Positions 9,369 to 64,000 are shown, numbered from the stretch's first letter. The stretch: DNA of 64,000 nucleotides from Kiritimatiellia bacterium (GCA_030744755.1 JASLPY010000002.1:67006-131005); one strand, 5' to 3'. Notes: a model not told the origin generated them from the sequence alone. Made by a program: numbers and translations.

Positions 9369-9407
9369 GTTTTATGGGTATTCGTTTTTTCAGGACACGA
9401 GGCGGTT

Positions 9408-25382: not shown

Positions 25383-25398
25383 CAATGTGCGCGGTTGG

Positions 25399-32680: not shown

Positions 32681-32747
32681 TTGTTCCCCCGTCAGGGTTC
32701 ATCCACCGCACATCCGGGACTCGGTCAGCCGATGCAGATGCCGGCTA

Positions 32748-35986: not shown

Positions 35987-36048
35987 GGCGGACGTTGAGA
36001 AGGAAATTTGAATGAGGAAGAGGAACGCATGAGTTGCCTTTCTCTTTC

Positions 36049-36067
36049 TGTGGGCGGCCCGCCCACA
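36049..36067. promoter_or_regulatory. Perfect 19-bp palindrome tgtgggcgg-c-ccgcccaca between the two flippase-like genes
   Basis: Exact dyad. On the minus strand it is followed by A/G-rich rather than U-rich sequence, so not a classical terminator. Confidence 0.3.
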
Positions 36068-36092
36068 AGGGGTTTATGCCTGGATCAACGAA

Positions 36093-37277: not shown

Positions 37278-37358
37278 GGTCGCCGGCAAATGGCACCAAC
37301 ATAAAGCTATTCGCGCTTGCTTGCATTTTGACCGCAATCGTGGAATGCTTCTTCCGGT

Positions 37359-47550: not shown

Positions 47551-47636
47551 CCTTCCTGATTCGTTTAGGGAGCCTGCCGCATGACCACGAGATATCGCCT
47601 TGCCACGTTGAGCGGGCATTTAGAAAGGAATAAGAA

Positions 47637-48752
47637 GTGAACGTACCCCTCTTGGATCTCAAGGCCCAATACCAGTCCATCAAGACGGAGATCGATCCTG
47701 TGGTAGCCGAGATAATGGAGTCCCAGTACTTTATTCTTGGTCCAAAAGTCAAGGAATGTGAAGAAGCGGTTGCCGCCTACTCGAACTGTAGCCATGCCAT
47801 CGGCGTCTCTTCGGGAACGGATGCCCTCCTCATTGCTCTTATGGCCGAAGGGATTGGCGCTGGAGACGAGGTCATCACTACGCCGTACACGTTTTTCGCC
47901 ACTGTCGGCTCAATCGTCCGCACCGGGGCAACTCCCGTGTTCGTGGATATCGATCCGGTCTCGTTTAACATAGACCCGTTGGCAATAGAGGAGAAGGTCA
48001 CGGACATGACCAAGGCGATCATTCCCGTTCACCTATACGGGCAGATGGCGGACATGGATCCGATCATAGAGATTGCCCGCAAGAATGGCATTGCGGTCAT
48101 TGAAGACGGCGCGCAGGCTATAGGCGCCGAGCGGAACGGGCAAAGAGCAGGATCTGTAGGAGACTACGGATGCTTCTCGTTCTTTCCGTCGAAGAACCTT
48201 GGCGCGTTTGGCGATGGCGGCATGGTTGTTACGAACGATCCGGAGAGAGCAGAAAGGCTCGAGATTCTGAGAGCTCACGGTTCCAGGCCCAAGTATTACC
48301 ATACGGTGATCGGCGGGAATTTCAGGCTGGATGCCTTGCAGGCGGCAGTAGTCACCGTGAAGCTATCCCACCTTGATTCGTGGACTGCAGGGCGCCAGTC
48401 GAATGCGCAGAGATACGACCGTCTCCTGGGCGAGACGGGCCTGGTGGAGAAAGGACTTGTTTCCCTGCCTACGGTGATAGCCAACAGACATATCTTCAAT
48501 CAATACGTGATACGGGTGGACAGAAGAGATGAGCTCAGGGATTACCTGAAAGAGAACTCGATCGGGTGCGAAATCTACTACCCGGTTCCGCTACACATTC
48601 AGGAATGTTTCAGCTACCTTGGGCTATCGAAGGGCGATATGCCCGAAAGCGAGAAGGCTGCCGACACAACCCTGGCACTGCCCGTGTACCCGGAACTGTC
48701 CGACGAGCAGGCGAAGTACGTGGTAGACACGATAGCATCTTTCATGTCTTGA
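47637..48752 (+). CDS. DegT/DnrJ/EryC1/StrS-family PLP-dependent sugar aminotransferase (WbpE-like)
   Basis: GTG start with ribosome-binding site gaaagga. [12 protein letters not shown] lysine motif [19 protein letters not shown]. Confidence 0.9.
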
Positions 48753-48762: not shown

Positions 48763-50868
48763 TCAGCGGCCCTGCCAGGTATAGAGCCGAAATACGCGGG
48801 TCTTGTGCTTGATCTTGAAGTCAGACATTCGCTTGTGATGGATTATCTCGTCTACGTTGATCGTTCCACTGGTCCAATCGAGCTCGACCTTTCCAGGATC
48901 CATGGGATAGACAGTCAGTCCACGTTCCGTTGAGGTGAGGAAACGTATCTTTGCGCCCTCGTTTCTCAGGCGTTCAAGGGCGGCAAGGCCAGCAGACATT
49001 GTCTGTCCTCCGTCTCTTGCATAAAAAGTGCGGGCGTTAAGGATTCTTACGCCGTGAAGAAAACGAAGCGGAGTTCCCCACCACGGGTGATCCACGACAA
49101 CGATGTCCTCCGGATCAATCTGTTCGGCGACTTCCGCCAGGGCTGCCGACAGGCCATCGTACTCGGTCCGATTCCAGGCATGCCAGCTACTCTTTGCCGA
49201 AGATAGAAGCACGGCCATGAGAATGATCACGGCAAGGCCCTTACCCCATGGAATTCGCCCGGCGGTTCGCGGCCAAAGCCAGTGACACAGGTAAGCAAGG
49301 AGTATGGAAAGACAAGGGACTGTGAACTGAAGATAGCGCCGCGTTGCCCAGGGGTAAATCATGGCCATGAAACTCTGGATAAGTACAACGGCAGTGACTG
49401 CCGCCAGCCAGCATATGACAATTCTAAGCAGATGAGTTTCTTCCCCCTGTTTAGAGTAGAGCACCAGGGCTCCAAGAGCGGCGGCAATCATATATCCCCA
49501 ACCGAGGTAGGGAAGTATTCTGCGCAGGCTTGTGGCAGTACCGGCCATACAATCAACGCCGGCGGAGAACCATATTGCAGGGAGAGCAATAATGGCCAGG
49601 GAACAGGCTGCCGGCGAAAGCCATGATGGAGTCTTCTCCATGAATCTCCGCACCAGGGGCCGGCAAGCTATTTCATCTAAAACAACCGCCGCAATGGCAA
49701 AACCTGCCCCTGCCTTGACGAGCGTCGGAACCACACGCTGGAGTTGCTCGGTAGTAACCGATGTCACGAAGATATCAAAACATCCGCCGAGAATAAGCGC
49801 CATTACGAGCGTGGACCGTTCGAACCTCACCCGCCATCTGTCCTTACGTGTTCTGTCCTGCCAGGCGATGCATGGAAGCAACATGGCGCCAAATGGCATG
49901 AAGCTGATGCGGTTTAATTCGGCGGCCATTACGGTCGCGGCCAGGAGTACGGGTGCAGCGTAGCCGGTGGTGCGGATAGAAAGAAGCAAGGCAATGCAGC
50001 ATACAAGCAGCAACTGCAGCATCTCGGAAACCGGAATGTGCAGGTGATAAAGCCACAGCGGATGTGCCGCCAGGCATATTGCTGCGGCAACAGCGCAGAA
50101 TGGATCTCTGATCTCCCCCAGGAGAAACGCCGCAAGCATTGCGCACGCAAAGAAACCAAGAATGAAGTTAACCCGCGTTGCGGCACGAAGTCCCCCGCAT
50201 CTTGCAACTATGCTTATTGCTGTCGGGCTCAGGCGATAGAAGTAATTACGAACGGCCCGGGTTTCCCGGTCCAGCGGGATTCCCGGGAAACACTCACGGT
50301 AATCGCCGGCGCCCTTGCCTCCCCTGCGGGTGAAGACGATGAATTCTTCATCCGTGAGATTCTCGTAGGCATTCTCGGGCTCGGGATAGAACGTTCCTGT
50401 CTGTGCAACCCATGCGCCCTGGTTCAGGTAAACGCCCGGGTCCCACCCTCCGACAATCCATTCACCAGATTTCGGCAGCCACATGATAGCGGTCATTGCG
50501 AGTGCGAAGATGACGGTGCCTGGGAGCGAAAGAACGATGCCATTGAACAAGAGTTTACGCTCCCTGGCGAGCCCGGTCAGAATCCCAGAAGCCACGAGGA
50601 TCAGAGAGACGGTAATCTCGGTTCCGAGTGTGCAGACCCCTGCTTCGCATAACGCGAGTGAAACGAGTAGAGAACTGACAAGACCGATAAGAAATGCCTG
50701 GGCAGAACGAACAAGGCTGCGAACCCAACACAGCCCGGCACAGCGTTCCGGGAACGGCAGAATCCAGACCCAGGCCGCGCCGACCAGAACGAACCTGAGA
50801 CACAAAACGGCCGTGCAAGTTATCCACGGGTTGGCTGCAACTGTATGAATCGAAGGCGGCGCCAGCAT
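48763..50868 (-). CDS. Polytopic membrane protein (GT-C-like), divergent partner of the polyprenyl-phosphate GT
   Basis: 701 aa. At least 12 transmembrane helices with one large periplasmic loop (..GWDPGVYLNQGAWVAQTGTFYPEPENAYENL..). Confidence 0.55.
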   Translation of the reverse strand: MLAPPSIHTVAANPWITCTAVLCLRFVLVGAAWVWILPFPERCAGLCWVRSLVRSAQAFLIGLVSSLLVSLALCEAGVCTLGTEITVSLILVASGILTGLARERKLLFNGIVLSLPGTVIFALAMTAIMWLPKSGEWIVGGWDPGVYLNQGAWVAQTGTFYPEPENAYENLTDEEFIVFTRRGGKGAGDYRECFPGIPLDRETRAVRNYFYRLSPTAISIVARCGGLRAATRVNFILGFFACAMLAAFLLGEIRDPFCAVAAAICLAAHPLWLYHLHIPVSEMLQLLLVCCIALLLSIRTTGYAAPVLLAATVMAAELNRISFMPFGAMLLPCIAWQDRTRKDRWRVRFERSTLVMALILGGCFDIFVTSVTTEQLQRVVPTLVKAGAGFAIAAVVLDEIACRPLVRRFMEKTPSWLSPAACSLAIIALPAIWFSAGVDCMAGTATSLRRILPYLGWGYMIAAALGALVLYSKQGEETHLLRIVICWLAAVTAVVLIQSFMAMIYPWATRRYLQFTVPCLSILLAYLCHWLWPRTAGRIPWGKGLAVIILMAVLLSSAKSSWHAWNRTEYDGLSAALAEVAEQIDPEDIVVVDHPWWGTPLRFLHGVRILNARTFYARDGGQTMSAGLAALERLRNEGAKIRFLTSTERGLTVYPMDPGKVELDWTSGTINVDEIIHHKRMSDFKIKHKTRVFRLYTWQGR

Positions 50869-50988
50869 GTGCCGATACTAGCCGACTCCAAACAGGGCCT
50901 CAAGCAGTTTCGGACTCGTGCCTAATGTACTCGACACACTTAGTGCAATCCGTTACGTTCCGGTGGTTCTGGCGATCAAGGAGTGAGC

Positions 50989-51942
50989 ATGGAAGACATG
51001 CAGAATAAGTCTGAAACAACAGTGATAATGCCGGTTTTTAATGAGGCTGGAGCTGTCGCGGACGTCTTGCGAGAGCTTACCGCATCATCAAGAGATATCG
51101 GGTTTCAAGTGATTGTTGTGGATGACGGTTCTACCGATGGATCGGCGGCGGTCGTTGACGGCTTTAAGGATCAGGTTCAGGTGATTCACCACACGTCCAA
51201 CCATGGATACGGTGCCGCCCTGAAAACAGGGATTCTTGCCACGCGTGCCCAGAACGTCGTCTTCTTCGACAGCGATGGCCAGCACAAGACTGAGAATATG
51301 GCCGAACTTATTGGGCTCCTTGCTGAGCACGAATTCGTTTTCGGAGAACGGCCGAAAGGTGGTGGGTCGCCGTTGATCAGACAACCCGGTAAATGGGTAC
51401 TTGGCAAGGTCTGCAATTTTCTTGCCCTGCGCAAGATTCCCGACATCAACTGCGGTTTCCGGGGAGGAAGGCGACGGATCTACATGCGGATGCTGGACCT
51501 GTTGCCTGACGGGTTCTCTTTCTCGACAACTTCCCTGTTGTTCGCTCTGCGCAGCCGCTACTCCACGGTGTTTATGCCAGTGCGGGCGGACGCGCGTCAG
51601 GGCAAGAGCTCGGTCCGGATATTCTACGATGGGTTCAAAACGCTGCTTCTGGCCCTGAGGCTGATGATGCTTTTTGATCCCATGCGCGCCTTTGGATACC
51701 CGGCGATGGGGCTGATCCTTGTGGGGGTGATCTACCAGATTTTCATATTCTCTACCGCGGGGCTTCATATTGAGGGCGGCGCGATTCTCTCACTGCTTGC
51801 CGGCGTGATTCTGTTCCATTTCGGCTTACTTGGCGACCAGGTGGCATCTTTGCGAAAGGAGATGAGCTCGCAGACAAGCCTTTTCTGGGAGGAACACGAA
51901 TTCTTGGAACGCCGGCAAAGCCAACTCGAAAATCAACAGTAA
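50989..51942 (+). CDS. GT2 polyprenyl-phosphate glycosyltransferase (ArnC/GtrB/DPM1-like) with C-terminal transmembrane helices
   Basis: Ribosome-binding site aaggag. VIMPVFNEAGAV..VIVVDDGSTDGS..FFDSDGQH, plus two C-terminal transmembrane helices. Confidence 0.8.
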   Translation: MEDMQNKSETTVIMPVFNEAGAVADVLRELTASSRDIGFQVIVVDDGSTDGSAAVVDGFKDQVQVIHHTSNHGYGAALKTGILATRAQNVVFFDSDGQHKTENMAELIGLLAEHEFVFGERPKGGGSPLIRQPGKWVLGKVCNFLALRKIPDINCGFRGGRRRIYMRMLDLLPDGFSFSTTSLLFALRSRYSTVFMPVRADARQGKSSVRIFYDGFKTLLLALRLMMLFDPMRAFGYPAMGLILVGVIYQIFIFSTAGLHIEGGAILSLLAGVILFHFGLLGDQVASLRKEMSSQTSLFWEEHEFLERRQSQLENQQ

Positions 51943-51953
51943 CACTCGCAACG

Positions 51954-53171
51954 ATGAAAAACCATAGCCGCGTATCCTCGCTCCTTATAATCTGTCACGG
52001 CTATCCCCCTTACTACGGGGGCGGGGAAGGGGTCGCGGCCGGGATTGCATCGGAAGTCGCACGCTCATCAAGCTACAACGTCACCGTGCTCACATCCGAT
52101 ATTGGAGGGCGACTCAAGGAACGTGAGATTCTACAGGGCGTTTCCGTGATCCGGATTCCGGCGATGAAGAGGGAATGGTCTCGTCACACCGTGGTGGAGC
52201 TCCTGTCTTTCTATGTCTCTGCCGTCCGCCGTCTTCGCTCGATACATGAAGAGATACGACCGGATCATGTACTAGCCATTTTCTCCATGCCGGCAGGGCT
52301 TGTTGCCTTGAAGTGGTTCCGGATGTTCGGCGTTCCTTATTCTGTTGGACTCCACGGCTCGGATGTGCCGGGCTATCAGCCCCGCAGGTTTCGTCTGCTG
52401 CATCCGGCAATGCGCCTCGCCGTGCGGCGAGTATGGTCAAATGCGGAGAACGTTTTCGCCGTGAGCTCAAAACTTAAGGAGCTCGCATTGAAAACATGGC
52501 CGAAAGGGAGAATTGAGGTCATCCCAAACGGTGTGGATACTCGTCGCTTCCATCCTGGTAATCCCGAGGACAGTTGTAAAGGAAGACTCCGCATGGTGCT
52601 CGTATCGCAGCTGATAGAAAGGAAAGGCATTCAGTATCTCCTTGAAGCACTGGCCGAAATGGACCCCTCCCTGGGCGAGAAACTTGAAGTCGATATATAT
52701 GGCACTGGTGATTACCGTAGAACCCTTGAAGAGCAGGTGCGTGACCTCCGGCTGGGTGACCGTGTATCATTAAACGGTCTGCTGGAAACGGAAGAGCTTG
52801 CGAAGACGCTCCATGACGCCGATATGTTTGCTCTGCCTTCCCTGCAGGAAGGTCTCCCACTGGCATTACTGGAGGCCATGGCATGCGGGTTGCCCATTGT
52901 GGCGACGGCCGTGGGTGATGTTCCGAGCGTGATGCGTGACAATATCAACGGACGCCTGGTGGCACCTGCCGATAGCCAGGCTCTTTGCCGTGCCGTTTCG
53001 GCAATGGTGGCGGACTCTGAACTGCGCAGTCAACTGGGCAAACAGGCCAGGCTTACCGCGGAAGATTACTCATGGGACAGAATATGGGCTCGCTATGATA
53101 CTTCGCTGTCCCGAGGGACCGACACGAACGAGGGTGCCTGTTCTGCAGCGAAAGAGAGCGAGGTAAACTAA
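51954..53171 (+). CDS. Family 4 glycosyltransferase
   Basis: GT4 pattern including ..LPSLQEGLPLALLEAMACGLPIVAT.. Confidence 0.85.
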   Translation: MKNHSRVSSLLIICHGYPPYYGGGEGVAAGIASEVARSSSYNVTVLTSDIGGRLKEREILQGVSVIRIPAMKREWSRHTVVELLSFYVSAVRRLRSIHEEIRPDHVLAIFSMPAGLVALKWFRMFGVPYSVGLHGSDVPGYQPRRFRLLHPAMRLAVRRVWSNAENVFAVSSKLKELALKTWPKGRIEVIPNGVDTRRFHPGNPEDSCKGRLRMVLVSQLIERKGIQYLLEALAEMDPSLGEKLEVDIYGTGDYRRTLEEQVRDLRLGDRVSLNGLLETEELAKTLHDADMFALPSLQEGLPLALLEAMACGLPIVATAVGDVPSVMRDNINGRLVAPADSQALCRAVSAMVADSELRSQLGKQARLTAEDYSWDRIWARYDTSLSRGTDTNEGACSAAKESEVN

Positions 53172-53174
53172 CAC

Positions 53175-55316
53175 ATGGCACTACAACCCATAAACCGCGA
53201 ACAGGGGGACCAGCTTTCCGAGGTCTATCTGGGTGAGCGCAGCGACAGCGAAACGCAGCGAGTCACTCGAGAACGCGTGGAATGGATGTGCCGGGAGGCT
53301 GAAGGCCCACGCGTGATGGACGTAGGGTGCAGTCAAGGAATGACATCTACACTTGTAGCCAGGCAGGGATTGTTCTGTGTGGGGGTGGACGTTTCTCGTG
53401 ACGGTTTAGCCTATGCTGAGAACCTGAAGCGCAAGGGAAGTCCTGAGGTTAAAGAACGCCTGAGTTTCGTGTCTGCCAGTTGTTTCGAGTTGCCTTTCAA
53501 CGGTGATTACTTCGACAGTTGCCTTCTGGGTGAGGTCTTGGAACACTTAGAATGCCCCCGGGAATGCCTGGCGGAAACAGCCAGGGTGCTGAAGCCGGGC
53601 GGCAAAGCCGTAATCACCGTCCCATTTGGTCAGTTGCCGCACCCTGATCACAAAAGGGTTTACCATTTCACTTCTTTCCTCGCCGAGGTCGAAGCATTTT
53701 TTGACCCGGTTTCGATGGATCTGGTTGACAAACGAATACGTTTCGTCGGAAGACTCAGATCATCGGCGCCAGACGCAAAGCATGACAGTGTCGACAAGGG
53801 CCGTTTGCTTGAGAAGGCCGAACTGTTCATTGATGCACTGGAGGAATCGAAGGAAAACGAACAATTACGATTGAATATGGCTTTTGATCAACGAAAGAAG
53901 GCCCTTGAACAGCGCGATAGAAGCCTCGAGCACCTTCAGAGATTGGAAAATGGCGAAGGAGTTTCCAGACTCATTCGGGAAGTAGCACGCAAGCGAATGA
54001 GCTGGGTTGTGAGGGATTTGAGGAAGAATGGGTTCGGTTGGACCCTGATGAGGTGCTTTCGGAAGACCCTCAGGTTGATGATCAAACTGATGTCTAATTG
54101 CTTCAGCGTTTTGAAGAAGATACTGGATCTTCTCAGGGAAGAGAGGGTATGCAAGAAAGCAAGAGCCATATTTACAAAACGTCTTGCAGGTTTCGTGGAG
54201 AAAGCAAACAGCCACGATTCCAAACGTGTTGTCGTGATATTCTCCGGGACGAAGGAGATTAGGGAGATCTATGGAAACCGTCCCATGCGACAAACCAGGA
54301 TTCTTCTCGACGGAAGTACTCCCGTATTATTCTCCTACTATCGCTGGAACAAGACTGACCGTCTGGCAGAGAGTAATCGTCCGCTGCTTCTGCAATCTCC
54401 CATCGACTTCACAATGGAGTTCTTCTCCCAGATAATGCAGGCAGATTTCCCCGGCAAAGAGAAGATATTCATCGTGTCGTTCCCTCATCCTTTCATCGTT
54501 CGCAGGCTGAATGAACTGCACACGTGGGGCTGGCGAACCATCTATGATGTTCGTGATAACTGGGGGGAATTTGCGGTAGTGGGTGCAGCTCGCTGGTATG
54601 ACCAGGATGTAGAGCGGTATGTTGTCAACAACGTAGAGGCATGTTGCTGCGTCGCAGCTCCCCTTAGAGACAAGATCCAGGGTTTCACTACCAACAAGAC
54701 GGTGCACCTCAACCCGAACGCCTTCGATGTTCTGTTTCTGAAACCAGAGAACCGTGGACGGGTGGCCCCCAGGAGCGGACCGAAGATTGTCGGTTACTTC
54801 GGCCATCTTACACCTGCCTGGTTCGACTGGAAGAGGCTCAATGCAGTTGCTCGATTGTTACCGGAATGGACGTTCGAGGTAGTAGGACGGGATGCAGAAG
54901 GACATGGGGACCTGGAACGTAATATCTGTCTATCCGGACCGAAGTCTCATGCGGAACTGAACGAGATAACACAGCGTTGGCGGGTAGCCATGATCCCGTT
55001 CAAGATGGGCCCATTGGCTGATGGTGTGGATCCGATCAAGATCTACGAATACCTCGCAATGGGTTTGCCCACAGTCTCTTTCCGCATGCCCCAGATACAT
55101 GAGTACCCATATGTGTTTCCTGTGTATTCTGTCGAGGAATTCGCCGAAAAGATTGTCGAAGCATCTGAAGTGTCCATCGACAGAGAAGCTATTGACATGT
55201 TTCTCTCGGCCAATACCTGGGAAATCAGGGTCGACGAAATGTTAAGTCTTTTGATGGATCCTGAATTGACGCCTTGTGATCTGCAACTGCTCAATCCCGG
55301 CGGAGGCAATTCATGA
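53175..55316 (+). CDS. Fusion: class I SAM-dependent methyltransferase, coiled-coil linker, then a GT-B-like glycosyltransferase domain
   Basis: N-terminal VMDVGCSQGMTS...LKPGGKAVITVP. Central K/E/R-rich coiled-coil. C-terminal ..DPIKIYEYLAMGLPTVS.. resembles the GT4 donor-binding helix. Confidence 0.65.
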   Translation: MALQPINREQGDQLSEVYLGERSDSETQRVTRERVEWMCREAEGPRVMDVGCSQGMTSTLVARQGLFCVGVDVSRDGLAYAENLKRKGSPEVKERLSFVSASCFELPFNGDYFDSCLLGEVLEHLECPRECLAETARVLKPGGKAVITVPFGQLPHPDHKRVYHFTSFLAEVEAFFDPVSMDLVDKRIRFVGRLRSSAPDAKHDSVDKGRLLEKAELFIDALEESKENEQLRLNMAFDQRKKALEQRDRSLEHLQRLENGEGVSRLIREVARKRMSWVVRDLRKNGFGWTLMRCFRKTLRLMIKLMSNCFSVLKKILDLLREERVCKKARAIFTKRLAGFVEKANSHDSKRVVVIFSGTKEIREIYGNRPMRQTRILLDGSTPVLFSYYRWNKTDRLAESNRPLLLQSPIDFTMEFFSQIMQADFPGKEKIFIVSFPHPFIVRRLNELHTWGWRTIYDVRDNWGEFAVVGAARWYDQDVERYVVNNVEACCCVAAPLRDKIQGFTTNKTVHLNPNAFDVLFLKPENRGRVAPRSGPKIVGYFGHLTPAWFDWKRLNAVARLLPEWTFEVVGRDAEGHGDLERNICLSGPKSHAELNEITQRWRVAMIPFKMGPLADGVDPIKIYEYLAMGLPTVSFRMPQIHEYPYVFPVYSVEEFAEKIVEASEVSIDREAIDMFLSANTWEIRVDEMLSLLMDPELTPCDLQLLNPGGGNS

Positions 55317-56374
55317 CGAAGATACTGTTTCTTTATCAGTATGCAGTACTCGGAGGTTGCACTACACAACTTCGTAACCGAATGGCTCTCACGGGTCTTG
55401 GCATTGAACCGCACTTCGTGTTTGCCCGGGAACATGGTGGCACTAAAGCGTTTGGCGACTACCCTCATGTGAAGAGTGAAATCACAGACGACCAACTCAA
55501 GGCACTGATTCTGCAAAACGGTTTCGAGGTAGTGTCGGTTCTGGATGCCCCTGGATATCTCCGGTTGTTGGCCGAAATGAACTTCAAAGGCAAGATAGTC
55601 TGTGAAGTTCATACGACCTATCCGAAAGCACTCGAGTACCTTGCCGATGACAACCTGATGTCCGCGGTCGACATGTTCATAACCCCCTCCCAGTACCAGA
55701 TGAACATGATAAAGGAGCGCTCGCAGGCGGCGCTCTCCGTGCCTGTACAGGTAGTGCCGGATTGCATTGATGCGGATCTGTTCCGGCCCGTAGATATATT
55801 TCCGGAATCACCCCATCCCATCGTTCTGTGGGTGGGTAAGCTTGACGATCACAAGAACTGGCGGGGATTCCTTTCTATGGCTCGGGGAATCGCAGCCGAG
55901 CGTCCGGATACCGAGTTCTGGATGGTAGGCGGCGAAGCCGCAGGGGATGATGTAGTGAGCAAGTTACTGTCCGAGATGACAGACAAGGATCTTGCCTCAT
56001 CTCTTCGATGGATCGGCCGGGTTGAGCATGACAGGATGCCGCCATTGTACAGTCTGGTGGCGCGACGCCAGGGGTGCATGCTGGTTACATCACACGGGGA
56101 ATCTTTTTGTACGGCTGCCGTGGAAGCCATGTTTTGCGGTTGTCCCGTAGTAGCCCCCCGGCACACCGCCTTGCCGGAGATCGTCTGTCACGAGACCCAT
56201 GGCCTGCTGTACGCACCAGGTGATGAACGGGACGCAGTTGACCAGACCATTCGCCTGCTTTCGGATAAGCAGCTGTGGGCGAGTATTGCGGCACGAGACG
56301 CAAACGAACTTCCTGGCAGATTCGGCACAACCGAAGTGTTGCGTAAGCTAAGAGATGTCTTTGAGAAGATATAG
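55313..56374 (+). CDS. Family 4 glycosyltransferase
   Basis: ATGA overlap with the upstream gene. GT-B C-terminal motifs (..TSHGESFCTAAVEAMFCGCPVVA..). Confidence 0.8.
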   Translation: MTKILFLYQYAVLGGCTTQLRNRMALTGLGIEPHFVFAREHGGTKAFGDYPHVKSEITDDQLKALILQNGFEVVSVLDAPGYLRLLAEMNFKGKIVCEVHTTYPKALEYLADDNLMSAVDMFITPSQYQMNMIKERSQAALSVPVQVVPDCIDADLFRPVDIFPESPHPIVLWVGKLDDHKNWRGFLSMARGIAAERPDTEFWMVGGEAAGDDVVSKLLSEMTDKDLASSLRWIGRVEHDRMPPLYSLVARRQGCMLVTSHGESFCTAAVEAMFCGCPVVAPRHTALPEIVCHETHGLLYAPGDERDAVDQTIRLLSDKQLWASIAARDANELPGRFGTTEVLRKLRDVFEKI

Positions 56375-56471
56375 GAATACCCCTGTGGCCCACGACGCAA
56401 TTGAACTTCATATTGCCCTCAAGTGCCGGGTAACCAACCAGTGCCCTACGTCGAAAGGGAAGCGGCTGAAG

Positions 56472-58925
56472 ATGTTGCAGGACCGTATCAGTATCGTGTG
56501 GCTTCTCGCCCTGGTCCTTGTTGTCACCAGTGCGTGCAGCGACCGCCGGGAACAAAGGGCATCCGATCCGTTAACGAAGGAAAATGAGGTGGCAGCCGGC
56601 GAATCACGCTGGAAGATCGTGGCCAGGGAAATGAACTGGGTCGGCATTAGTGACGTAAAGACCTTTCAAGAAGACAACACAGTCAGCACAGTACTTCCCC
56701 CCATCAGCAACCGACATGTCCTTGTGATTGCCGATACCGCAGTCTCGGCGGTTGTTTCCACCAACTTTGCCGTAGAAACACAGGTGCGGTTGTCCGGGTG
56801 GAACTCCGTTCGTCTGATTACTCTCGGGATACACTTGGACAACGGAAACGTTATGTATCAAGGCAGAAAGAGTCATCCCGAACAGAATCGCTGGCTGAAC
56901 TTGCACGTGACCACGGCCAACCGCCTGAGATTGGCAGCGGACAATCCGAACCGCCCCTTGCCGACTGGGGCTTCAAACCGGGTGGACTTCGTGCGCGTTT
57001 ATGTAGTTGGGGCCCCCGGGACAGAAAGCAGGCTTGATGTGTTAGACGTACCGCTGGAGATCACCGAACCGGAGCCCTCGGAAATGCTTGCGGGCATTGA
57101 AGAAATCCTCGACCGGGACATCGGCAAAACGAGCTCCGAAATAGCGAACTACTTCGAACGCAAGAAACCTATCGGCTGGATCAAAGATGAATTTGCAGGG
57201 GAATCATCGGAGCGGGGCATCGCCCTCCTGGAAGACAATGAGTATACGACGGCGGTCCATCCGTCATTCGTCTTCCCTGAGAACCCAACATGGTGCGAAG
57301 ACCCCTTCAATGATGCCAATTGGCGCCTTCGCCTCCAAGGTTTCGACTGGTTGCATCAATTAACGGCGGCATCTGTCAGCAGCGGTTCGGATGAGTATTT
57401 CAAGAGGGCCATTTACCTCATCGAGGACTGGACGAGCGATATGCCGGGAAGAATGCCGCGCGATGTAATGGTCTGGAACGATCATTCTGTGCCTCTCCGC
57501 CTGGAGCGCCTTCTCAACTTCTTTGAAGTGCATCGTTCTCCTGCCATGGCACCGGATTCAACAGCTTTCCTCCTGCGCCTTATTCACGCCCATGCGCAGT
57601 TCTGTTCTGACGAAGATTTCTACGCGAGAAACCAGCCAACACGCGTTCATAACCACGCATTCTTCCAGGACCGGGCTCTTCTAAGGGCGGCGCTTTGTTT
57701 TCCAGAGTTCATACATGCTGAAGAATGGGAACGCACGGCTGCCCGAAGAATTGTGTTTCAGATGAATGAAGGGCTTACATCTGATGGCGTCTGGAAGGAG
57801 AACACGTCGGGCTACCACCTGGGGATGTTCAAGCACGTACAGAAACTCAACGCCTTATGGAAGTACCATGGTCGTCCCGAAGTGCTCAAGAAGGTGGAGC
57901 AGGACATGCTCAGATTCATTCTTGCGCTTGCCGAGGTCGATGGAGCTCTTGTGGCGTTCGGAGATAATCCCAGGCACTTAATGCGGGCCGAAGTTGAGAC
58001 AGAACAACTCGATGCAAAATACATCTTCTCCCAGGGCAAAGTCGGCCATGCACCGGAATGGATAGATCAGGCATTTCTCGACAGTGGATATGTAGCCATG
58101 CGCGACCGGTGGTGGCCCGAAGACAGGTTCTACATGGGTGCTCACACACTGATGCTTGCAGGTTTTAACTCAGTGACACACAAGCACCGTGACGATCTTT
58201 CTTTCTTGATATCCGCACAGGGGGAAAGGTGGCTCGTGGATCCCGGGTTCTATTCGTCAGATCGAGACGATCCTTTACAGATTTATGCATGGTCGGCGCG
58301 AGGGCACAACACTGTCTCGGTAGACGACCAGGACTTCCCGGTGGAACGGAGCCGGATAGGAAGTACAGCTGTAACGAAGTACAAATCGGAAGAATCGTTT
58401 GCATATGTTGAGGCCACAACAAAAGTCTACCGAAACATCGATTTCTATCGAAAGCTCGTCTACCTGAGGCCCAATGTCTGGTTTGTTCAAGACGTTCTCA
58501 AATCTCTTGATGGGATGAATCACAAATTTACGCAGAACTTTCATTTCTCGCCAGACAAGGAGGTAGCCGTGACGAAAGGTGTGCTGTCAATAACGGCTGA
58601 CTCGGGATCCGACATGCGCATTTTCAATCTGGATGGCCTCGGTGAACCCACTCTTCACAGAGGAGAGAAGGAGCCGCAAGTACTTGGGTGGTTCTTCCCC
58701 GTCTACGGACAGGCGGTTCCCTGCGTATGTGCAACCTATGTCCACACGGGAGAAGAAGCGCTCTTTTCAAAACTGATTGTGCTGTCCGGCGAAGATCCTT
58801 TGGCCCGTAAGTTCAAGGTTGCTCCGACCGGAGAAATCATGGGCATGTTGAAGTCGGAATTGCCCGCGGAGATCCTGGGGCGACTGGATATGACTTTCGG
58901 ACCTCCGAACAGCCGTCAACAGTGA
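56472..58925 (+). CDS. Heparinase II/III-like protein (alginate-lyase-like toroid plus Hepar_II_III beta-domain), lipoprotein
   Basis: Lipobox VVTSAC after the ATG at 56472. N-terminal beta-sandwich. The conserved ..HKHRDDLSFLISAQGERWLVDPG.. block is typical of the heparinase II/III family. Confidence 0.7.
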   Translation: MLQDRISIVWLLALVLVVTSACSDRREQRASDPLTKENEVAAGESRWKIVAREMNWVGISDVKTFQEDNTVSTVLPPISNRHVLVIADTAVSAVVSTNFAVETQVRLSGWNSVRLITLGIHLDNGNVMYQGRKSHPEQNRWLNLHVTTANRLRLAADNPNRPLPTGASNRVDFVRVYVVGAPGTESRLDVLDVPLEITEPEPSEMLAGIEEILDRDIGKTSSEIANYFERKKPIGWIKDEFAGESSERGIALLEDNEYTTAVHPSFVFPENPTWCEDPFNDANWRLRLQGFDWLHQLTAASVSSGSDEYFKRAIYLIEDWTSDMPGRMPRDVMVWNDHSVPLRLERLLNFFEVHRSPAMAPDSTAFLLRLIHAHAQFCSDEDFYARNQPTRVHNHAFFQDRALLRAALCFPEFIHAEEWERTAARRIVFQMNEGLTSDGVWKENTSGYHLGMFKHVQKLNALWKYHGRPEVLKKVEQDMLRFILALAEVDGALVAFGDNPRHLMRAEVETEQLDAKYIFSQGKVGHAPEWIDQAFLDSGYVAMRDRWWPEDRFYMGAHTLMLAGFNSVTHKHRDDLSFLISAQGERWLVDPGFYSSDRDDPLQIYAWSARGHNTVSVDDQDFPVERSRIGSTAVTKYKSEESFAYVEATTKVYRNIDFYRKLVYLRPNVWFVQDVLKSLDGMNHKFTQNFHFSPDKEVAVTKGVLSITADSGSDMRIFNLDGLGEPTLHRGEKEPQVLGWFFPVYGQAVPCVCATYVHTGEEALFSKLIVLSGEDPLARKFKVAPTGEIMGMLKSELPAEILGRLDMTFGPPNSRQQ

Positions 58926-58957
58926 TTGAGCGGGTCTAACGAGAATACAGGCATAGA

Positions 58958-60979
58958 ATGACGAGCTCTCCGAGAAGAATCATACCGCGCATCATTCCGC
59001 TGCTACTCCTGGCAGCACTGCTGTTCGCCGGATTCTTCTGGCGTGATATGCGTCGCTGCCTGAAAACGCTGCAGGCAAAATCTGATGTTTATGATGGCAG
59101 CATTATAGTCGCCCCCGCTGGTTGGCGCATGACTGCCGAATCTCACTTCTCTGGGAATCGACTCGATACTGAAGTGTGCCGTTCCAATGATTTCGTGGAC
59201 GTTACTTTCTCCGCGACTCCCGACGAACGTGCGACGCTGTATTGTGTAATGCCAATGAAAGTCAGCATGTCCGGTGAGTTCCTTCTTCGGATCCCTGTGC
59301 GGCTGTCCTCATGGGACTCGGTGTCACTTCTTGCCGTGGGCGTTCGCAACGGGACGAATGGATACTACTACGCCAGGAAAAGCCATCCATCCCAAGACAG
59401 GCGGCACAGCGTCGAGTTGTCTCCTCTCAAGCGACTCAGGTTCATTGTGGACAATACGGGAATGCGCCCCGTGAGCGAAAGCGCGTTTAACGCTGATTAC
59501 ATTCGCGTCATTGTTGATGGGGTTCCGGGGGCCGGCGCCCGGACGCGAATCTGGGAAAGTGTTATCGATCCCGATTCACCGCAGTCACCACAGCCCATTC
59601 TTCCCGTGCTGAAGAGTATTGTGCGCGAGAACATTGATTCTTCGCGTGATGGATTGACCAAGTACTTCCGGGAGAAACCGGCACCCCCGGGTCAGCGTGT
59701 CAGGTATACTCCGGAAGACGTGAAACATGGTGAACTCCTGGTGGGACAGGGTATGTTTCAGACGTTGGTTCATCCAGCCGTACGGATGCCGCCTGACCCG
59801 GACTGGGCCGCGGATCCGTTTAGTGATGCCAACTGGAGGTATCGGCTGCATGGATTCGACTGGCTGCGCGCTATTACGGCTGAGTTCCGCAAGTCGGGCT
59901 CAGCAGCGTCGCTGGAGAAGGCGACATCCTTTATAAAGGACTGGGCTTCGGATGTGCTTGGCGTCATGCCATGTGACCGCATTGTCTGGTACGATATGTC
60001 AGTTCCCGACAGGATGAAGAGAATGGTTGAGTTCTTCGAGGTCTACCGGACATCGTCCAGTTGTCAGTCCGACATGAAATTCCTGCTTTCTCAAGGAAAG
60101 GAAGGGAGCAGGCCATCCTGGCTTGACCGCCTGTTTGTGAAGAGTGGTTACGTGACTTTCAGGGATCGCTGGTGGTCTGCCGGCGATTTCAACATGGGTG
60201 TGCACACGCTTTTTCTCGCAGGCTACAACTCAATAACACATAAGCACCGGGACGATCTTTCCTTTACAATCTACGGGTATGGTGAAGACTGGCTTGTGGA
60301 TGCAGGCATGTACAAGTACAATCACATGGACAAGTTTCAACAGTACGCGCGATCCGCGCGCGCACACAATACCGTATCAATAGACGGCACTGACTTCCCT
60401 GTCTCGCGCTCCTTCGTCGGCGCAACGGAAATAACAGATTGCTACTCAGGTCCCGATGCGGCATTCGTTGAAGCGTCGACCCGGGCATACGGTGATGTAA
60501 CGTTCTCAAGGAAGTTGCTGTTCATCAGGCCCAATATTTGGATCGTTGAAGACAGCCTGGAAGACGTGAGCGACAAAGAACACGATTTCGTTCAGCACTT
60601 TCACTTTTCTCCGGGCAAAGAACTCGAACCCATGAGCAATATGTTGCTGGTTAGAGGGAGTGGTGATTCAAAAATGTCTCTCATTGACCCGTGCGGCCAT
60701 CCGGCGCCCGTTCTGATCCGGGGTGTGACTGACCCCCGGGTTCAGGGGTGGTTCTTCCCGCAATACGGTCAGAAGACTGAGAACGTGTGTGCCGACTACC
60801 GGCTTCGGGGAACATCGGCGCGTTTCGTCAAGGTGCTTGTCCTTGAAGGCAATGATCCGCATGCAAAGAAGGTCGGTGATATCTCACTTCCGGCGCTTGT
60901 GGACGGAATTCCGAAACTCGCACCGGCCGAAATGGCGGCTGCGCTGCTTACGGGAATCGACATGGGAGATAGGCGATGA
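58958..60979 (+). CDS. Heparinase II/III-like protein, tandem paralogue
   Basis: Signal anchor. N-terminal beta-sandwich and the ..HKHRDDLSFTIYGYGEDWLVDAG.. block are collinear with the gene at 56472-58925. Confidence 0.7.
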   Translation: MTSSPRRIIPRIIPLLLLAALLFAGFFWRDMRRCLKTLQAKSDVYDGSIIVAPAGWRMTAESHFSGNRLDTEVCRSNDFVDVTFSATPDERATLYCVMPMKVSMSGEFLLRIPVRLSSWDSVSLLAVGVRNGTNGYYYARKSHPSQDRRHSVELSPLKRLRFIVDNTGMRPVSESAFNADYIRVIVDGVPGAGARTRIWESVIDPDSPQSPQPILPVLKSIVRENIDSSRDGLTKYFREKPAPPGQRVRYTPEDVKHGELLVGQGMFQTLVHPAVRMPPDPDWAADPFSDANWRYRLHGFDWLRAITAEFRKSGSAASLEKATSFIKDWASDVLGVMPCDRIVWYDMSVPDRMKRMVEFFEVYRTSSSCQSDMKFLLSQGKEGSRPSWLDRLFVKSGYVTFRDRWWSAGDFNMGVHTLFLAGYNSITHKHRDDLSFTIYGYGEDWLVDAGMYKYNHMDKFQQYARSARAHNTVSIDGTDFPVSRSFVGATEITDCYSGPDAAFVEASTRAYGDVTFSRKLLFIRPNIWIVEDSLEDVSDKEHDFVQHFHFSPGKELEPMSNMLLVRGSGDSKMSLIDPCGHPAPVLIRGVTDPRVQGWFFPQYGQKTENVCADYRLRGTSARFVKVLVLEGNDPHAKKVGDISLPALVDGIPKLAPAEMAAALLTGIDMGDRR

Positions 60980-62157
60980 AGATAATGATGACGGCCTCTC
61001 TCGATCCGGGCAAAGAGACTGCGGGGAAGACTCATTTTCTGTCGCTCTGCAGATGTTTTGCCAAATCCGGTCACGATGTTACAGCGATATTGCCGTCTTT
61101 CGGAGACCCGGAAGAAGATGCACGCATTCCTGAAGAGCTTGGTATAAACGTTGTATGGACGCATTCATTAACGTCTTCCGTGCATGAATGGCTATTATGG
61201 GGCTGGATTCGCACGTTGGTGCTTGGGTGGCAAATTGTTCGCCTGCGCCCCGCCATGCTGTATGTCAGGACCAGGACATCCGCCCCGTTTTTCTGTATGA
61301 TTGCGCGTCTTGTAAGCCCGCGGCTCCGTGTAGTCAGCGGTCATCCCGGCTGGGTTGCCTACCAGTTACTTGCCTGTGGCCAGCCACGTTTCCAGCAGTC
61401 ACTGGCAAGATGGTCCCAGCTAATGAACGCAAGATTCTCTTCGCGAATACGGGTTGTTGCGGATGGTATCCGTCATGCATTGATAAGGGGGGGCATTGCA
61501 GCCGAGAAGATATACGTGGTTGGTAACGGCACAGCCGTTCAAAGATTCAGGCCCGTCGATGCTCAGGAAGCATGGAAGGCGACAGGTCTTGACGCATCTC
61601 TAACGCACCTGGGGTTTGCAGGCACATTGGAGAAATGGCAGGGCGTAGACCGCATGCTTGAGGCCGCGAAGATCTTGTTCCGTGATCGTGAGAACCTGAG
61701 GGTATTGGTCGTGGGAAGCGGACCCGAAGAAGAGTCCCTGCAGAAGAAAGCTGAAGAACTCGGCATAGCCGATCGATGCATGTTCGTTGGTGCCGTGCCG
61801 CATGCCAAGATGCCGTTTTACATCAACTGCTTCACCATCGCAGTGCTGTTCAAGTGCGGCTTGGACGAGATAGCCGGATCACTGTACTCTTCCCTGAAAC
61901 TGCGCGACTACGCTGCATGCGGAGTCCCCATTCTGGCATCGCGTGGTGCGGCTGATCACGGTATCATCACTCAAGGCAAGTTCGGGATGCTCGTAGATCC
62001 TGAGAACCCATCGGAAGTGGCACAGACGGTGATGAGGATGCTCAATGACAAGACGGCACTGGAGCAAATGGGTCAAGAAGGAAGGCGCACTGCAGAAGCC
62101 GAATTTGCCTGGGAGAAGATTGCCGAGAGTGTTCTTTGCCTGGCCCTGGAAGGTTGA
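60976..62157 (+). CDS. Family 4 glycosyltransferase
   Basis: ATGA overlap with the upstream gene. GT-B pattern (..ASRGAADHGIITQGKFGMLVDPENP..). Confidence 0.8.
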   Translation: MKIMMTASLDPGKETAGKTHFLSLCRCFAKSGHDVTAILPSFGDPEEDARIPEELGINVVWTHSLTSSVHEWLLWGWIRTLVLGWQIVRLRPAMLYVRTRTSAPFFCMIARLVSPRLRVVSGHPGWVAYQLLACGQPRFQQSLARWSQLMNARFSSRIRVVADGIRHALIRGGIAAEKIYVVGNGTAVQRFRPVDAQEAWKATGLDASLTHLGFAGTLEKWQGVDRMLEAAKILFRDRENLRVLVVGSGPEEESLQKKAEELGIADRCMFVGAVPHAKMPFYINCFTIAVLFKCGLDEIAGSLYSSLKLRDYAACGVPILASRGAADHGIITQGKFGMLVDPENPSEVAQTVMRMLNDKTALEQMGQEGRRTAEAEFAWEKIAESVLCLALEG

Positions 62158-62192
62158 CACGAGATGCTCACTGTAAAGCGGTAAGCGTTGTG

Positions 62193-62885
62193 CTACGTGG
62201 CCAGAAGTGTTCCCGGCAAATCTTCGAGATTCTCCATCACCAGGCTTCCTTTCGCGCACAGCATCAAGCGATAAGACATTCCCACGCTATGACAGCTGGT
62301 TGGCAACGCGATATCCAGAACTCGCGTGAGGGACAGCTCCCTGAAGATGCGGTAGTAATCGTGATAATAGGAGAAAGGCGCGGTTTTTGAGACGTCGCCC
62401 TCCGCGTGCTCTCCATCTATTCGTCCTTCGCCCCCGTGGACGCAAGGCTCACAAAAAAGCAGGTACCGACCGGCAATTCGGTTTAGCTCGGTGCATGTTG
62501 CCACTGGGTCCGGGATGTGGTCGAGAACGGAAATCGTAAAGACAAGATCCCAACGATTGTCAGGGTAGTCATCCAGAGCCAATTCATCACCGACACGTAG
62601 ATCCAGACCATAGTGTTCAACACCATATTTGATGGATGCCTCATTTATGTCGATACCCGACACGGCGGTTAATTCCGATTTCTTAGCGATAAGGTCCAGG
62701 TTTCTGCCGCTGTTGCATCCGAACTCGAAGACGGATGCTGGGCTGAGTAACGAGACAATTGAGGAAACAGTGTCTGCATAGTACGGCACTCCGCCTCCGT
62801 AGCCGAGCCCCATGCAATCAGTAGAACGCCAGTATGTCTTGGCATCCGCGCTTTCCCGGATGTCTGATCCCATCTCTTCGGTCAT
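62193..62885 (-). CDS. Class I SAM-dependent methyltransferase
   Basis: Motif I VFEFGCNSGRNL and motif post-I VSGIDIN. ATG at 62885 with ribosome-binding site ggaga; the track's TTG extension is rejected. Confidence 0.7.
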   Translation of the reverse strand: MTEEMGSDIRESADAKTYWRSTDCMGLGYGGGVPYYADTVSSIVSLLSPASVFEFGCNSGRNLDLIAKKSELTAVSGIDINEASIKYGVEHYGLDLRVGDELALDDYPDNRWDLVFTISVLDHIPDPVATCTELNRIAGRYLLFCEPCVHGGEGRIDGEHAEGDVSKTAPFSYYHDYYRIFRELSLTRVLDIALPTSCHSVGMSYRLMLCAKGSLVMENLEDLPGTLLAT

Positions 62886-62919
62886 TCTACATGTCTCCAC
62901 TGAATACGATGGCGGGATG

Positions 62920-64000
62920 CTAACAAGGGCGGTCAATAGCGTCAATATTCACCTTGCCGCGGTATGTTTGCACCCAGTAGCAGAACTCCGCCATGATACC
63001 GGCGTCCCTCAGATACTCCCACCTTTCTACCGGTCCCGCATCCAATCTTGTCCGGGCTCCGGCCATCCATTTGGGATTCAGAATAGACGATATGATCTCT
63101 GATTCCTGATCTATGACCTCGAGGTAACTTGAGAGGGCACCGGGGGACTGGATGCTCAGCCGGGTTCGTGGTCTACGTTTGAACCCGCTTGGCCACACGG
63201 TGTCGCTGCCGAGCGGAATGGTGGCCAACCTGGGGTCAATGGCTCCTATTATGCGCGTATTGACATTCCCCCCCAGTTTTGTCTGGGGCGGTATTCCCAT
63301 GGCGAGATGAAACACGGATGGATCTGTGAATGGAGTCACCACAAGCCATCGACGGTTGAGCATAGAACAAGGCGAGGATGCAATGGCCCGTCGGGACCTG
63401 TGCTGGAGCCAGAAGAATGACACGGTATTCGGATGTCCATCGTATTCCTTAATCTCACGTCTGACGGTACTGGTCAGCCCTTCCTTCCAGTGCTCTGCTA
63501 CCCGTGGCCTCAGAAAGTTCGAGGGCGTGCGACCTGCGAGCATGAACGTGGCCAATTCATCGGCAAGAGCTCGCAACCTCCCGTTCTTGAGCAAGTCCAG
63601 ACGGTTTGCATCCAGCATGTGCGGCTTGAGCATGACATCGCCTATGAGCCCGTCGAATGCCACCGCCCCGTCATGACCTCCCGACGCGGCGAGGTGCATT
63701 ATCCAGGTGTGAAAAGCAGTTGAGAAATCAGCTGCCTCGCATTTGTCCCGCCACGTGCGTTCAACGTAGTCCGATGGCAACGGCACGAAGGTGTTCTCGA
63801 CTTTCAGTGTTCGCGCCACTTCCAGCGCCAGGTCTGGATCAAAGAGGGCCCCGTTGTCCGGATCAGTGGTCAGCGTAGAGAATTCCACTCCCGCGTGGGC
63901 GAGAACTCCGGCAATGGACCGCGAATCCCTTCCGCCGCCGAGAAGACAGAGATGTTCCCGGTTCTCCTCCACTCTCCGCAGCGCGCCCCTGCCAATTTCG
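62920..64000 (-). CDS. Asparagine-synthetase-like amidotransferase (synthetase domain); the 5' end lies beyond the window
   Basis: Degenerate PP-loop LLGGGRDSRSIAG and a C-terminal AsnB-like domain. The reading frame stays open upstream of the GTG at 63972 to the window edge, so the gene is probably longer. Confidence 0.55.
   Translation of the reverse strand, partial: EIGRGALRRVEENREHLCLLGGGRDSRSIAGVLAHAGVEFSTLTTDPDNGALFDPDLALEVARTLKVENTFVPLPSDYVERTWRDKCEAADFSTAFHTWIMHLAASGGHDGAVAFDGLIGDVMLKPHMLDANRLDLLKNGRLRALADELATFMLAGRTPSNFLRPRVAEHWKEGLTSTVRREIKEYDGHPNTVSFFWLQHRSRRAIASSPCSMLNRRWLVVTPFTDPSVFHLAMGIPPQTKLGGNVNTRIIGAIDPRLATIPLGSDTVWPSGFKRRPRTRLSIQSPGALSSYLEVIDQESEIISSILNPKWMAGARTRLDAGPVERWEYLRDAGIMAEFCYWVQTYRGKVNIDAIDRPC

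Follow-up and report, generated by a model that had tools for sequence, protein, structure and literature searches.

Two heparinase-like genes stand in tandem within a glycosyltransferase operon

We analysed a 64,000-nucleotide stretch of DNA from a Kiritimatiellia bacterium (GCA_030744755.1, JASLPY010000002.1:67006-131005; hereafter the window), in which two adjacent, co-oriented open reading frames (ORFs) at positions 56472-60979, termed ORF A and ORF B, encode heparinase II/III-like paralogues amongst glycosyltransferase (GT) genes. The tandem pair had been proposed in an earlier note made from the sequence alone, and its coordinates proved to be exact:

56472..58925, plus strand: ORF A, 817 amino acids (aa), PL12-like (Hepar_II_III) protein, predicted to be exported, in which the catalytic set is complete (Pfam, PDB search, Foldseek)
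58958..60979, plus strand: ORF B, 673 aa, predicted membrane-anchored and catalytically incomplete paralogue with an internal 149-codon deletion (Pfam, BLASTP, orthologues)

Translation of ORF A from the ATG at 56472 gives a protein that begins MLQD, and the frame is open back to 56355. Both proteins passed the Pfam profile that had been suggested as a check, Hepar_II_III_C (PF07940; 80.2 bits for A and 89 bits for B against a gathering cut-off of 24). They also passed Hepar_II_III_N (PF16889; cut-off 22), which matched A at 78.6 bits over profile positions 30-281 of 340 and B marginally at 24.7 bits over positions 21-185 of 340 only, this partial coverage being due to the deletion in B. A second suggested profile, Alginate_lyase (PF05426), gave no match to A or B in Pfam at E≤1, and the same was true of DSE-like_N (PF16332). 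When compared directly by BLASTP the two proteins matched with an E value of 1e-87, with 47% identity in the C-terminal half and 34% in the N-terminal half, and the shared HKHRDDLSF block was located at residues 570-578 of A and 428-436 of B. A candidate third paralogue, an 843-aa ORF at 42479-45010, was ruled out (hhalign probability 0.3%).

ORF A has the fold and catalytic residues of PL12 lyases

The full-length AlphaFold2 (AF2) model of A, made from an 8-sequence alignment, is of moderate confidence (pLDDT 72, pTM 0.68) and has three domains, the first being all β (residues ~47-191) and the second and third as follows:

57081..57929, plus strand: α/α toroid of A, residues 204-486, 13 helices in the AF2 model, containing Asn394 (57651-57653) and Tyr448 (57813-57815)
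58008..58796, plus strand: C-terminal β-sheet domain of A, residues 513-775 (533-772 in the AF2 model), containing H570-K-H572, D590 and H612 (4MMH and PL39 alignments, AF2 model)

In a Foldseek search of the PDB the top matches of this model were the polysaccharide lyase (PL) family 12 structures 4MMH, 5JMF and 4FNV (E 1e-24 to 1e-20; TM to target 0.63-0.66), followed by lyases of families PL15, PL35, PL39, PL33, PL17 and PL21, with human dermatan sulfate epimerase 1 (DS-epimerase 1; 6HZN) at rank 22 (E 5e-12). A sequence search of the PDB also gave heparinase III, 4MMH, as the best match, with E values of 1e-17 when A was the query and 2e-38 with the family profile. The α/α toroid plus antiparallel β-sheet that make up the PL12 fold in CAZy are both present in A, as judged from the model and the Foldseek matches.

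In 4MMH, Tyr294 and His424 act as base/acid and Asn240 as neutraliser (PMC12088678). Counting along the 4MMH alignment, where chain index + 24 equals the published number, the equivalents of Asn240, Tyr294 and His424 in A are Asn394, Tyr448 and His570. Residues H393-N394-H395, Y448-H449, H570-K-H572, D574-D575, D590 and H612-N613 are invariant in the 8-sequence family alignment (alignment A2). The second His of the HxH motif is missing in heparinase III, which has H-A-Q at this position, while the HxH..D..H arrangement of A aligns with 'HyHyDhLSF..sDsG..aHN' of the PL39 enzyme 6JP4. Enzymes of PL17 and PL21 bind Zn at the same HxH/D/H positions. At the level of motifs, an HxH and an acidic residue ~18 positions on are found in both A (H570/H572/D590) and B (H428/H430/D448), and the spacing in A is that of His450/His452/Glu470 in DS-epimerase 1, where His450 lies near the active site and His452, Glu470 and Asn481 bind Mn (PMC8006597). 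A is therefore PL12-like overall, with a putative metal-site motif of its neighbouring families.

The closest characterised enzymes are thus HepC proteins of PL12 (Pedobacter heparinus, 4MMH; Bacteroides BT4657, 5JMD/5JMF and 4FNV), which have the same toroid and β-sheet and the Asn/Tyr/His set found in A. However, the structural alignment identity is only 17-18%, and A and B differ from these enzymes in adding a signal peptide or anchor and an orphan β-sandwich, in lying in a biosynthetic operon instead of a catabolic locus, and, for B, in the absence of the Asn and Tyr. Likewise, both proteins fell below the NCBIfam HepC equivalog models NF045573 and NF045572 (cut-offs of 700 and 600 bits, respectively), with A scoring 75 and 43 bits and B 57 and 30 bits, so that their scores are far below orthologue level, and the glycosaminoglycan-like polymer of the earlier note remains speculation.

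Both proteins have putative export or anchor signals and share an orphan β-sandwich

The proposal that both proteins are secreted or membrane anchored agrees with a hydrophobic segment at the N-terminus of each, and the β-sandwich which they had been said to share was also recovered:

56472..56537, plus strand: putative signal peptide of A with a lipobox, ending at Cys22, MLQDRISIVWLLALVLVVTSAC (hydropathy; lipobox by pattern)
58991..59041, plus strand: predicted N-terminal transmembrane anchor of B, residues 12-28 (hydropathy 2.72 at residue 12)
56604..57056, plus strand: N-terminal β-sandwich of A, resembling a carbohydrate-binding module (CBM), residues ~45-195 (AF2 domain model, Foldseek)
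59120..59575, plus strand: copy of this orphan β-sandwich in B (23% identity to the domain of A)

In A the hydropathy over 15-residue stretches peaks at residue 8 with a value of 2.68, and the hydrophobic core is followed by the lipobox VVTSAC, the Cys of which is kept at the same place in the A-type orthologues P0002, P0003 and P0008; because of this conservation we read A as a predicted lipoprotein. The N-terminus of B is a single hydrophobic helix with no obvious cleavage site, and its flanking charges, which are clearer in the orthologues P0004 and P0005, suggest that the N-terminus would be inside and the bulk of the protein outside.

When modelled alone with AF2, the β-sandwich of A was all β with good scores (pLDDT 86.6, pTM 0.83), and its top Foldseek matches in the PDB were CBM70 (4d0q), CBM11, CBM61, CBM16 and Bacteroides SGBP-B (E ~3e-5, TM 0.5-0.57). 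The CBM-toroid-β-sheet order of A parallels that of exported lyases, an example being pneumococcal hyaluronate lyase, where CBM70, the top structural match, also precedes a toroid-type lyase. Sequence identity between the domain of A and CBM70, CBM11, CBM61 and CBM16 is 9-13%, and the domain of A is a putative ligand-binding module. The invariant residues of the domain (W, RKSHP, R..R, DN and D..R) are kept in B, and being rich in Arg, Lys and His they would suit an anionic ligand. A profile of the β-sandwich found only four proteins at E≤1e-10 amongst 1.84 billion representative proteins, three being full-length members of the A/B family and the fourth P0012, of 254 aa, which suggests that the sequence family is confined to the small A/B clade and nearly unique at the sequence level.

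ORF B has lost half of its toroid

A feature missed by the earlier note is an internal deletion in B:

60041..60079, plus strand: deletion junction of B, between VYRTSSSC and QSDMK, with 447 bp missing relative to the orthologue in the related genome L003 (blastn and junction alignment)

Using blastn, window positions 53928-60054 correspond to 1-6127 of L003 (NCBI GCA_002998485.1) and positions 60070-63137 to 6590-9657, with ~93% identity on both sides of the gap. At the gap 15 bases of the window stand for 462 bases of L003, a net and in-frame loss of 447 bp or 149 codons, and the junction is flanked by short microhomology only, of 5-7 nt (GAGATG/GACATG). Residues ~360-511 of A consequently have no counterpart in B, which lacks the last six of the 13 toroid helices, including the Asn and Tyr, together with the linker, but retains the anchor, the β-sandwich, the first seven helices and the whole β-sheet domain with H428-K-H430, D448 and H470. 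The homologues that match B most closely (P0004 and P0005) have 822 aa each and contain the HNH and YH motifs.

An assembly artefact was ruled out as the origin of this deletion. The 673-aa protein occurs without any change on at least 10 contigs that were assembled independently (in JGI 3300035205, in two Logan runs, in NCBI GCA_030747185.1 and in two ENA sets, one of them with a Tara Oceans sample), and all six contigs that were compared with the window (L044-L049, against 55958-63979) were 100% identical to it over 3-8 kb, junction included. Since it is identical in independent assemblies, the deletion is genuine, and it belongs to a widespread clonal marine population, one that is absent from the set of species-representative genomes.

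Of the catalytic set of PL12 only His428 is left in B, as the Asn and Tyr lie in the deleted stretch, and B should therefore be catalytically dead in this strain, for a lyase or an epimerase reaction alike. The expectation of the earlier note that catalytic residues would be present, their lack being what it had named as counting against its proposal, accordingly held for A, with Asn394, Tyr448 and His570, and failed for B; a lyase or C5-epimerase-like role, as it had suggested, is reasonable for A, which keeps the PL12 Asn/Tyr/His, and not for B.

Estimates of dN/dS for B were 0.34 against L003 and 0.17 against the related L050, and 0.27 for A against its L003 orthologue, a range of 0.17-0.34 that suggests purifying selection on both genes. 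Changes polarised to the window lineage numbered 18 synonymous and 11 non-synonymous in B, and 18 and 9 in A. Relaxed selection on B was considered and left no sign in either measure, in a test that cannot date the deletion.

B may be a partner that only binds, or else a recent relic. It is possible, though we rather doubt it, that the deleted form has been selected as a pseudoenzyme, which would sit anchored in the membrane and, with no catalysis of its own, bind glycan or act as a scaffold for A or for the export machinery. Its ORF is intact and the frame is kept, with the CBM-like domain and the HxH/D/H residues kept, the balance of synonymous and non-synonymous changes is similar to that in A, and the strain is found in many metagenomes. 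Moreover, the deletion runs from loop to loop, as judged from the alignment and the model of A, and removes a discrete half-toroid. However, the 100% identity of all copies carries no information on selection since the deletion, the folding of half a toroid is doubtful, and close relatives retain the full-length gene. Furthermore, the frame may stay open only through translational coupling to the next gene, a GT4, because the stop codon of B overlaps its start and only an in-frame lesion would then be tolerated.

We also observed that B is a mosaic. Its first ~80 codons (58958-59200) and last ~22 (60910-60979) are 75-82% identical to L050 and 32-42% to L003, unlike the middle of the gene, which is 90-97% identical to L003, suggesting allele recombination at the anchor and C-terminal tail.

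The operon probably makes an exported glycan

The genes on either side of the pair are:

50983..56374, plus strand: upstream operon of GT2 (GtrB/AglJ-like), GT4, methyltransferase-GT fusion and GT4 genes (Pfam, NCBIfam)
60976..62157, plus strand: downstream GT4, its start overlapping the stop of B (Pfam)
62193..63972, minus strand: convergent methyltransferase and AsnB-like amidotransferase genes, the latter cut by the window end (Pfam)

The order on the plus strand is GT2, GT4, methyltransferase-GT fusion, GT4, A, B and GT4, and the GT4 genes that had been described on both sides of the pair are present: the upstream GT4 ends at 56374, 97 nt before A, and the stop of B shares 4 nt (ATGA) with the start of the downstream GT4. 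Three of the operon GTs gave sub-threshold NCBIfam matches to the teichuronic-acid proteins TuaG, TuaC and TuaH, and sub-threshold EpsE-like matches were also seen amongst the upstream genes. A 143-kb contig of the same genome, L053, continues past this GT4 on the opposite strand with the methyltransferase, the AsnB-like protein (598 aa), a GT4, a 270-aa gene, an ATP-binding cassette (ABC) ATPase of 216 aa and an ABC-2 permease of 246 aa. These last two (ABC_tran and ABC2_membrane, Wzm/Wzt-type) lie 5-6 kb downstream on L053 and likewise in the related genome L002. No Wzx or Wzy families were detected in the window scan, which covered ORFs of at least 200 aa, minus eleven that overlap a longer ORF on another strand or frame. 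Given the ABC-2 permease and ATPase downstream and the lack of Wzx/Wzy in the window, we read the pathway as ABC-transporter dependent, with the chain made in the cytoplasm and then exported, so that A and B would meet it outside the inner membrane.

The third operon gene, at 53175-55316 (plus strand), encodes a 713-aa fusion of an N-terminal S-adenosylmethionine-dependent methyltransferase, a charged linker (residues ~200-330) that is probably a coiled coil, and a C-terminal TuaH-like GT. This layout resembles that of the WbdD/WbbB chain-terminator or 'ruler' proteins of ABC-transporter-dependent O-antigen systems, and such a protein would give chain-length control without a lyase. A chain-length lyase, as envisaged in the earlier note, may be less needed here because the fusion could cap chains.

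Upstream of the operon lie further genes for sugar modification:

45048-45719, minus strand: sulfotransferase-like ORF, 223 aa (Sulfotransfer_3 34 bits, Sulfotransfer_1 25 bits)
45865-48752, plus strand: GFO/IDH/MocA-hexapeptide acetyltransferase fusion, then a DegT aminotransferase (WbpB/WbpD/WbpE-like set)

The sulfotransferase-like ORF supports the claim that a sulfotransferase gene lies nearby; no other gene close to the operon relates to sulfation, and the window contains no genes for synthesis of 3'-phosphoadenosine-5'-phosphosulfate. The fusion and DegT genes would form an enzyme set for a 3-amino or 2,3-diacetamido sugar. The uronic acid genes that had also been placed nearby were not recovered, there being no UDP-sugar 6-dehydrogenase amongst the window ORFs scanned. 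Indirect hints of uronate are the AsnB-like amidotransferase, the WbpB/D/E-like trio and the sub-threshold TuaC/G/H-like matches, and a uronic acid would follow from the chemistry of the enzymes and the amidotransferase.

Relatives of A and B recur in glycan synthesis loci

Related genomes also have the tandem pair, at 65-93% identity. Together with the flanking GTs the pair is conserved in L003 (846 and 822 aa) and in L001 (65% identical; B copy cut by the contig end), and the gene order of the upstream operon is conserved in L001, L003 and L053. Homologue searches returned only 3-10 relatives, to which a profile search added none, whereas a scan of one genome per species gave 36 relatives at 20-30% identity, none closer than 30%, in Bacillota, Actinomycetota, Chloroflexota, a metagenome-assembled genome of Planctomycetaceae and Poseidoniales archaea. 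The N-terminal domain of A and B was covered by none of these 36. The gene content of the source organism may point to the PVC superphylum (Planctomycetota-Verrucomicrobiota group).

Many of the relatives' loci have two or three tandem copies and GT4 genes, and amongst the 99 nearest ORFs of 25 such loci the commonest neighbouring Pfam families were GT1/GT4 (GT4, 8-10 ORFs), GT2 (6), ABC_tran (5) and methyltransferases (3-4). In Cytobacillus spongiae the locus reads nucleotide-sugar dehydrogenase, GT, hypothetical protein, GT, 'alginate lyase family protein' and methyltransferase, and in Leisingera giant GTs, a heparinase II/III family protein, asparagine synthases, GlmS and GlmU; both proteins keep the NH, YH and HKH motifs and have no N-terminal hydrophobic segment. 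The presence of heparinase-family genes in biosynthetic loci is already known and widespread. On this sequence evidence the link of the family with glycan synthesis appears to be old and general, and export and the orphan β-sandwich would be what is special to the A/B clade.

Three further observations concern these relatives. An exosortase (EpsH/EpsI) exopolysaccharide locus at 6263-13186 of contig L041 encodes a DSE-like_N/Hepar_II_III_C protein and a 1061-aa GT4-Hepar_II_III fusion beside WecB/WecG/WecC-type genes, the fusion being a predicted cytoplasmic, GT-fused form of the family. Romboutsia lituseburensis (L009, 9872-16115) has three same-strand heparinase II/III-like ORFs within 6.3 kb, the third ~1 kb past the second. 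Tandem pairs are also present in L012, L014, L027, L030 and L040, such that tandem multiplication is common in the family.

ORF A may act as a lyase on the cell's own polymer

We propose, tentatively and at a little short of an even chance, that A and B are old paralogues within a branch of the heparinase II/III (PL12-like) fold that goes with biosynthesis, that A takes the C5 proton from a uronate of the polymer which the cell itself makes and exports, with a lyase outcome, and that B is dead. With Asn, Tyr and His all present in a PL12-like cleft, the chemistry to be expected of A is removal of the C5 proton of a uronate. In the scheme that we infer, from export topology and substrate to target, outcome and any residual role of B, A would be exported and lipid anchored, and its basic CBM-like β-sandwich would hold the cell's own acidic polymer. 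Once the chain has crossed the inner membrane, Asn394, as charge neutraliser, Tyr448 and His570 would abstract the uronate C5 proton. The most likely outcome would be β-eliminative cleavage by A, with a trimming, clearing or releasing role like that of AlgL, while the deleted B could be a binding-only partner or a recent relic kept in frame by its overlap with the GT4.

AlgL (PL5) is a periplasmic lyase from the alginate biosynthesis operon that acts on the cell's own uronic-acid chain. By analogy A may share with it the concept of a lyase-fold enzyme in a polymer-making operon, although AlgL is a toroid-only PL5 protein whereas A has the CBM-toroid-β-sheet architecture, and alginate is exported by Alg8/44/AlgE whereas an ABC transporter is present here. 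Genetic precedent is provided by a heparinase-family gene in the cps operon of Pseudoalteromonas lipolytica, a mutational hotspot that is needed for a normal capsule, its deletion giving translucent, capsule-poor colonies that could be complemented (PMC10634453). This gene (AT00_17115) and Acinetobacter GnlB/WeeF are heparinase-fold genes in cps loci and putative relatives of A and B.

A lyase is slightly favoured over a C5-epimerase for A because the characterised close relatives are lyases, because a lipoprotein-CBM-toroid layout is lyase-typical, and because of the AlgL precedent. Several points weigh against the proposal. A literature search found activity for catabolic lyases only and for none of the biosynthesis-associated Hepar_II_III members, the full-length model of A is of only moderate confidence with its 8-sequence alignment, and the window scan lacks the dehydrogenase that would make a UDP-uronate. 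Likewise, the identity of all deleted-B copies gives no sign of selection after the deletion and so allows no inference about it. The sequence cannot separate lyase from epimerase, since lyases and DS-epimerase 1 share their catalytic residues. Finally, distant relatives beside GT genes have no signal peptide or are fused to GT4, and as it is hard to see why a lyase would work in the cytoplasm next to a polymerase, this favours another reaction, such as epimerisation.

The strongest alternative for A is that A, like B in its ancestral full-length form, epimerises uronates at C5 at the polymer level in the manner of DS-epimerase 1, in which case reprotonation from the other face would give L-uronic residues in the exported chain, and this we judge to be rather unlikely. 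DS-epimerase 1 is a heparinase-type fold that epimerises instead of cleaving, using the same residues as the lyases (PMC8006597). It resembles A in overall fold, in its His/Tyr/His residue types and in the motif of an HxH-type metal site with its acidic residue, the second His of which heparinase III does not have, and it acts at the polymer level in biosynthesis. In addition, Acinetobacter GnlB (WeeF of the emulsan cluster), which was assigned to L-GalNAcA synthesis and is now seen as heparinase-like, tracks with L-GalNAcA-type capsules (PMC9676051; bioRxiv 10.64898/2026.07.20.739706), and the drop in capsule on loss of the P. lipolytica homologue fits a step that is required before later ones. 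However, DS-epimerase 1 is a eukaryotic Golgi enzyme with no detectable sequence relationship to A or B, PL12 being much closer and the best match by both sequence and fold, and every biochemically characterised close relative is a lyase. Moreover, DSE-like_N is not matched, the exported lipoprotein and CBM layout suits a lyase, and there is no evidence of L-uronic acids in the source organism. The Halobacterium C5-epimerase Agl32 was also considered as a relative and set aside as not relevant, having an AGE-type fold.

A broader version of the epimerase idea, which we consider clearly unlikely, would make the whole biosynthesis-associated Hepar_II_III branch (A, ancestral B, the cytoplasmic and GT4-fused relatives, GnlB/WeeF and AT00_17115) the missing bacterial uronate C5-epimerases that act at the polymer- or lipid-linked level, with tandem copies acting as pairs in which a non-catalytic partner is tolerated.

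It is very improbable that A and B are ordinary lyases which serve nutrition by degrading foreign polysaccharides of the heparan, alginate or ulvan type and which lie amongst GT genes by chance, because their operon position is conserved in three related genomes; although a lipoprotein with a CBM and a PL fold is the usual surface-anchored degradative layout, and the first 15 kb of the window hold degradative genes (glucuronyl-esterase-like, 3-keto-disaccharide hydrolase, GFO-type oxidoreductase and β-helix protein), the pair lies inside a same-strand GT run with the stop of B overlapping a GT4 start, has no adjacent genes for uronate catabolism or import, scores ~10% of the HepC equivalog cut-off, and has distant relatives whose commonest neighbours are GT4, GT2, ABC_tran and methyltransferase genes.

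Returning to the reading of A as a lyase on its own polymer, many loci for capsule, O-antigen, exopolysaccharide or cell-wall glycan have genes annotated as heparinase II/III family, and our literature search found a reaction demonstrated for none. If these proteins are lyases, then an AlgL-like trimming or release step would be widespread beyond alginate, and if they are epimerases they would explain polymer-level L-configured uronic residues in bacteria. The locus is tractable for this question, with a complete catalytic set in A, a natural half-toroid deletion in B and full-length B orthologues for comparison, and the orphan CBM-like domain may report the nature of the polymer.

Other genes of the glycan island

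A scan for promoters and terminators gave counts at shuffle expectation. Immediately upstream of the operon and including its GT2 is a divergent pair (48763-51942), formed of a 701-aa polytopic membrane protein with no Pfam match (minus strand) and the GtrB/AglJ/ArnC-like GT2, which has a hydrophobic C-terminal tail (plus strand); together these look like a polyprenyl-phosphate-sugar synthase with a periplasmic transferase of the GT-C type.

Further upstream are a CsaB-like polysaccharide pyruvyl transferase (41233-42453, plus strand), an FrhB-like Fe-S/flavin protein (32658-34124, plus strand) and acetyltransferases, along with two LPG_synthase_TM proteins (34868-37463, minus strand) and GDSL esterases. 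The FrhB-like, CsaB-like, LPG_synthase_TM and GDSL genes suggest that the same glycan, or a second one, may be further modified by pyruvyl and acyl groups. Three consecutive proteins of 726, 850 and 785 aa at 23205-30305 (minus strand), the last a clear PMT_2 and the first a weak DUF6541 match, may be GT-C-type glycosyltransferases. At the edge of the glycan island, an 813-aa protein (18599-21040, plus strand) has a sulfatase domain at residues 380-690 only, preceded by a long N-terminal region, and may be either a genuine sulfatase or a transferase of the LtaS/EptA type.

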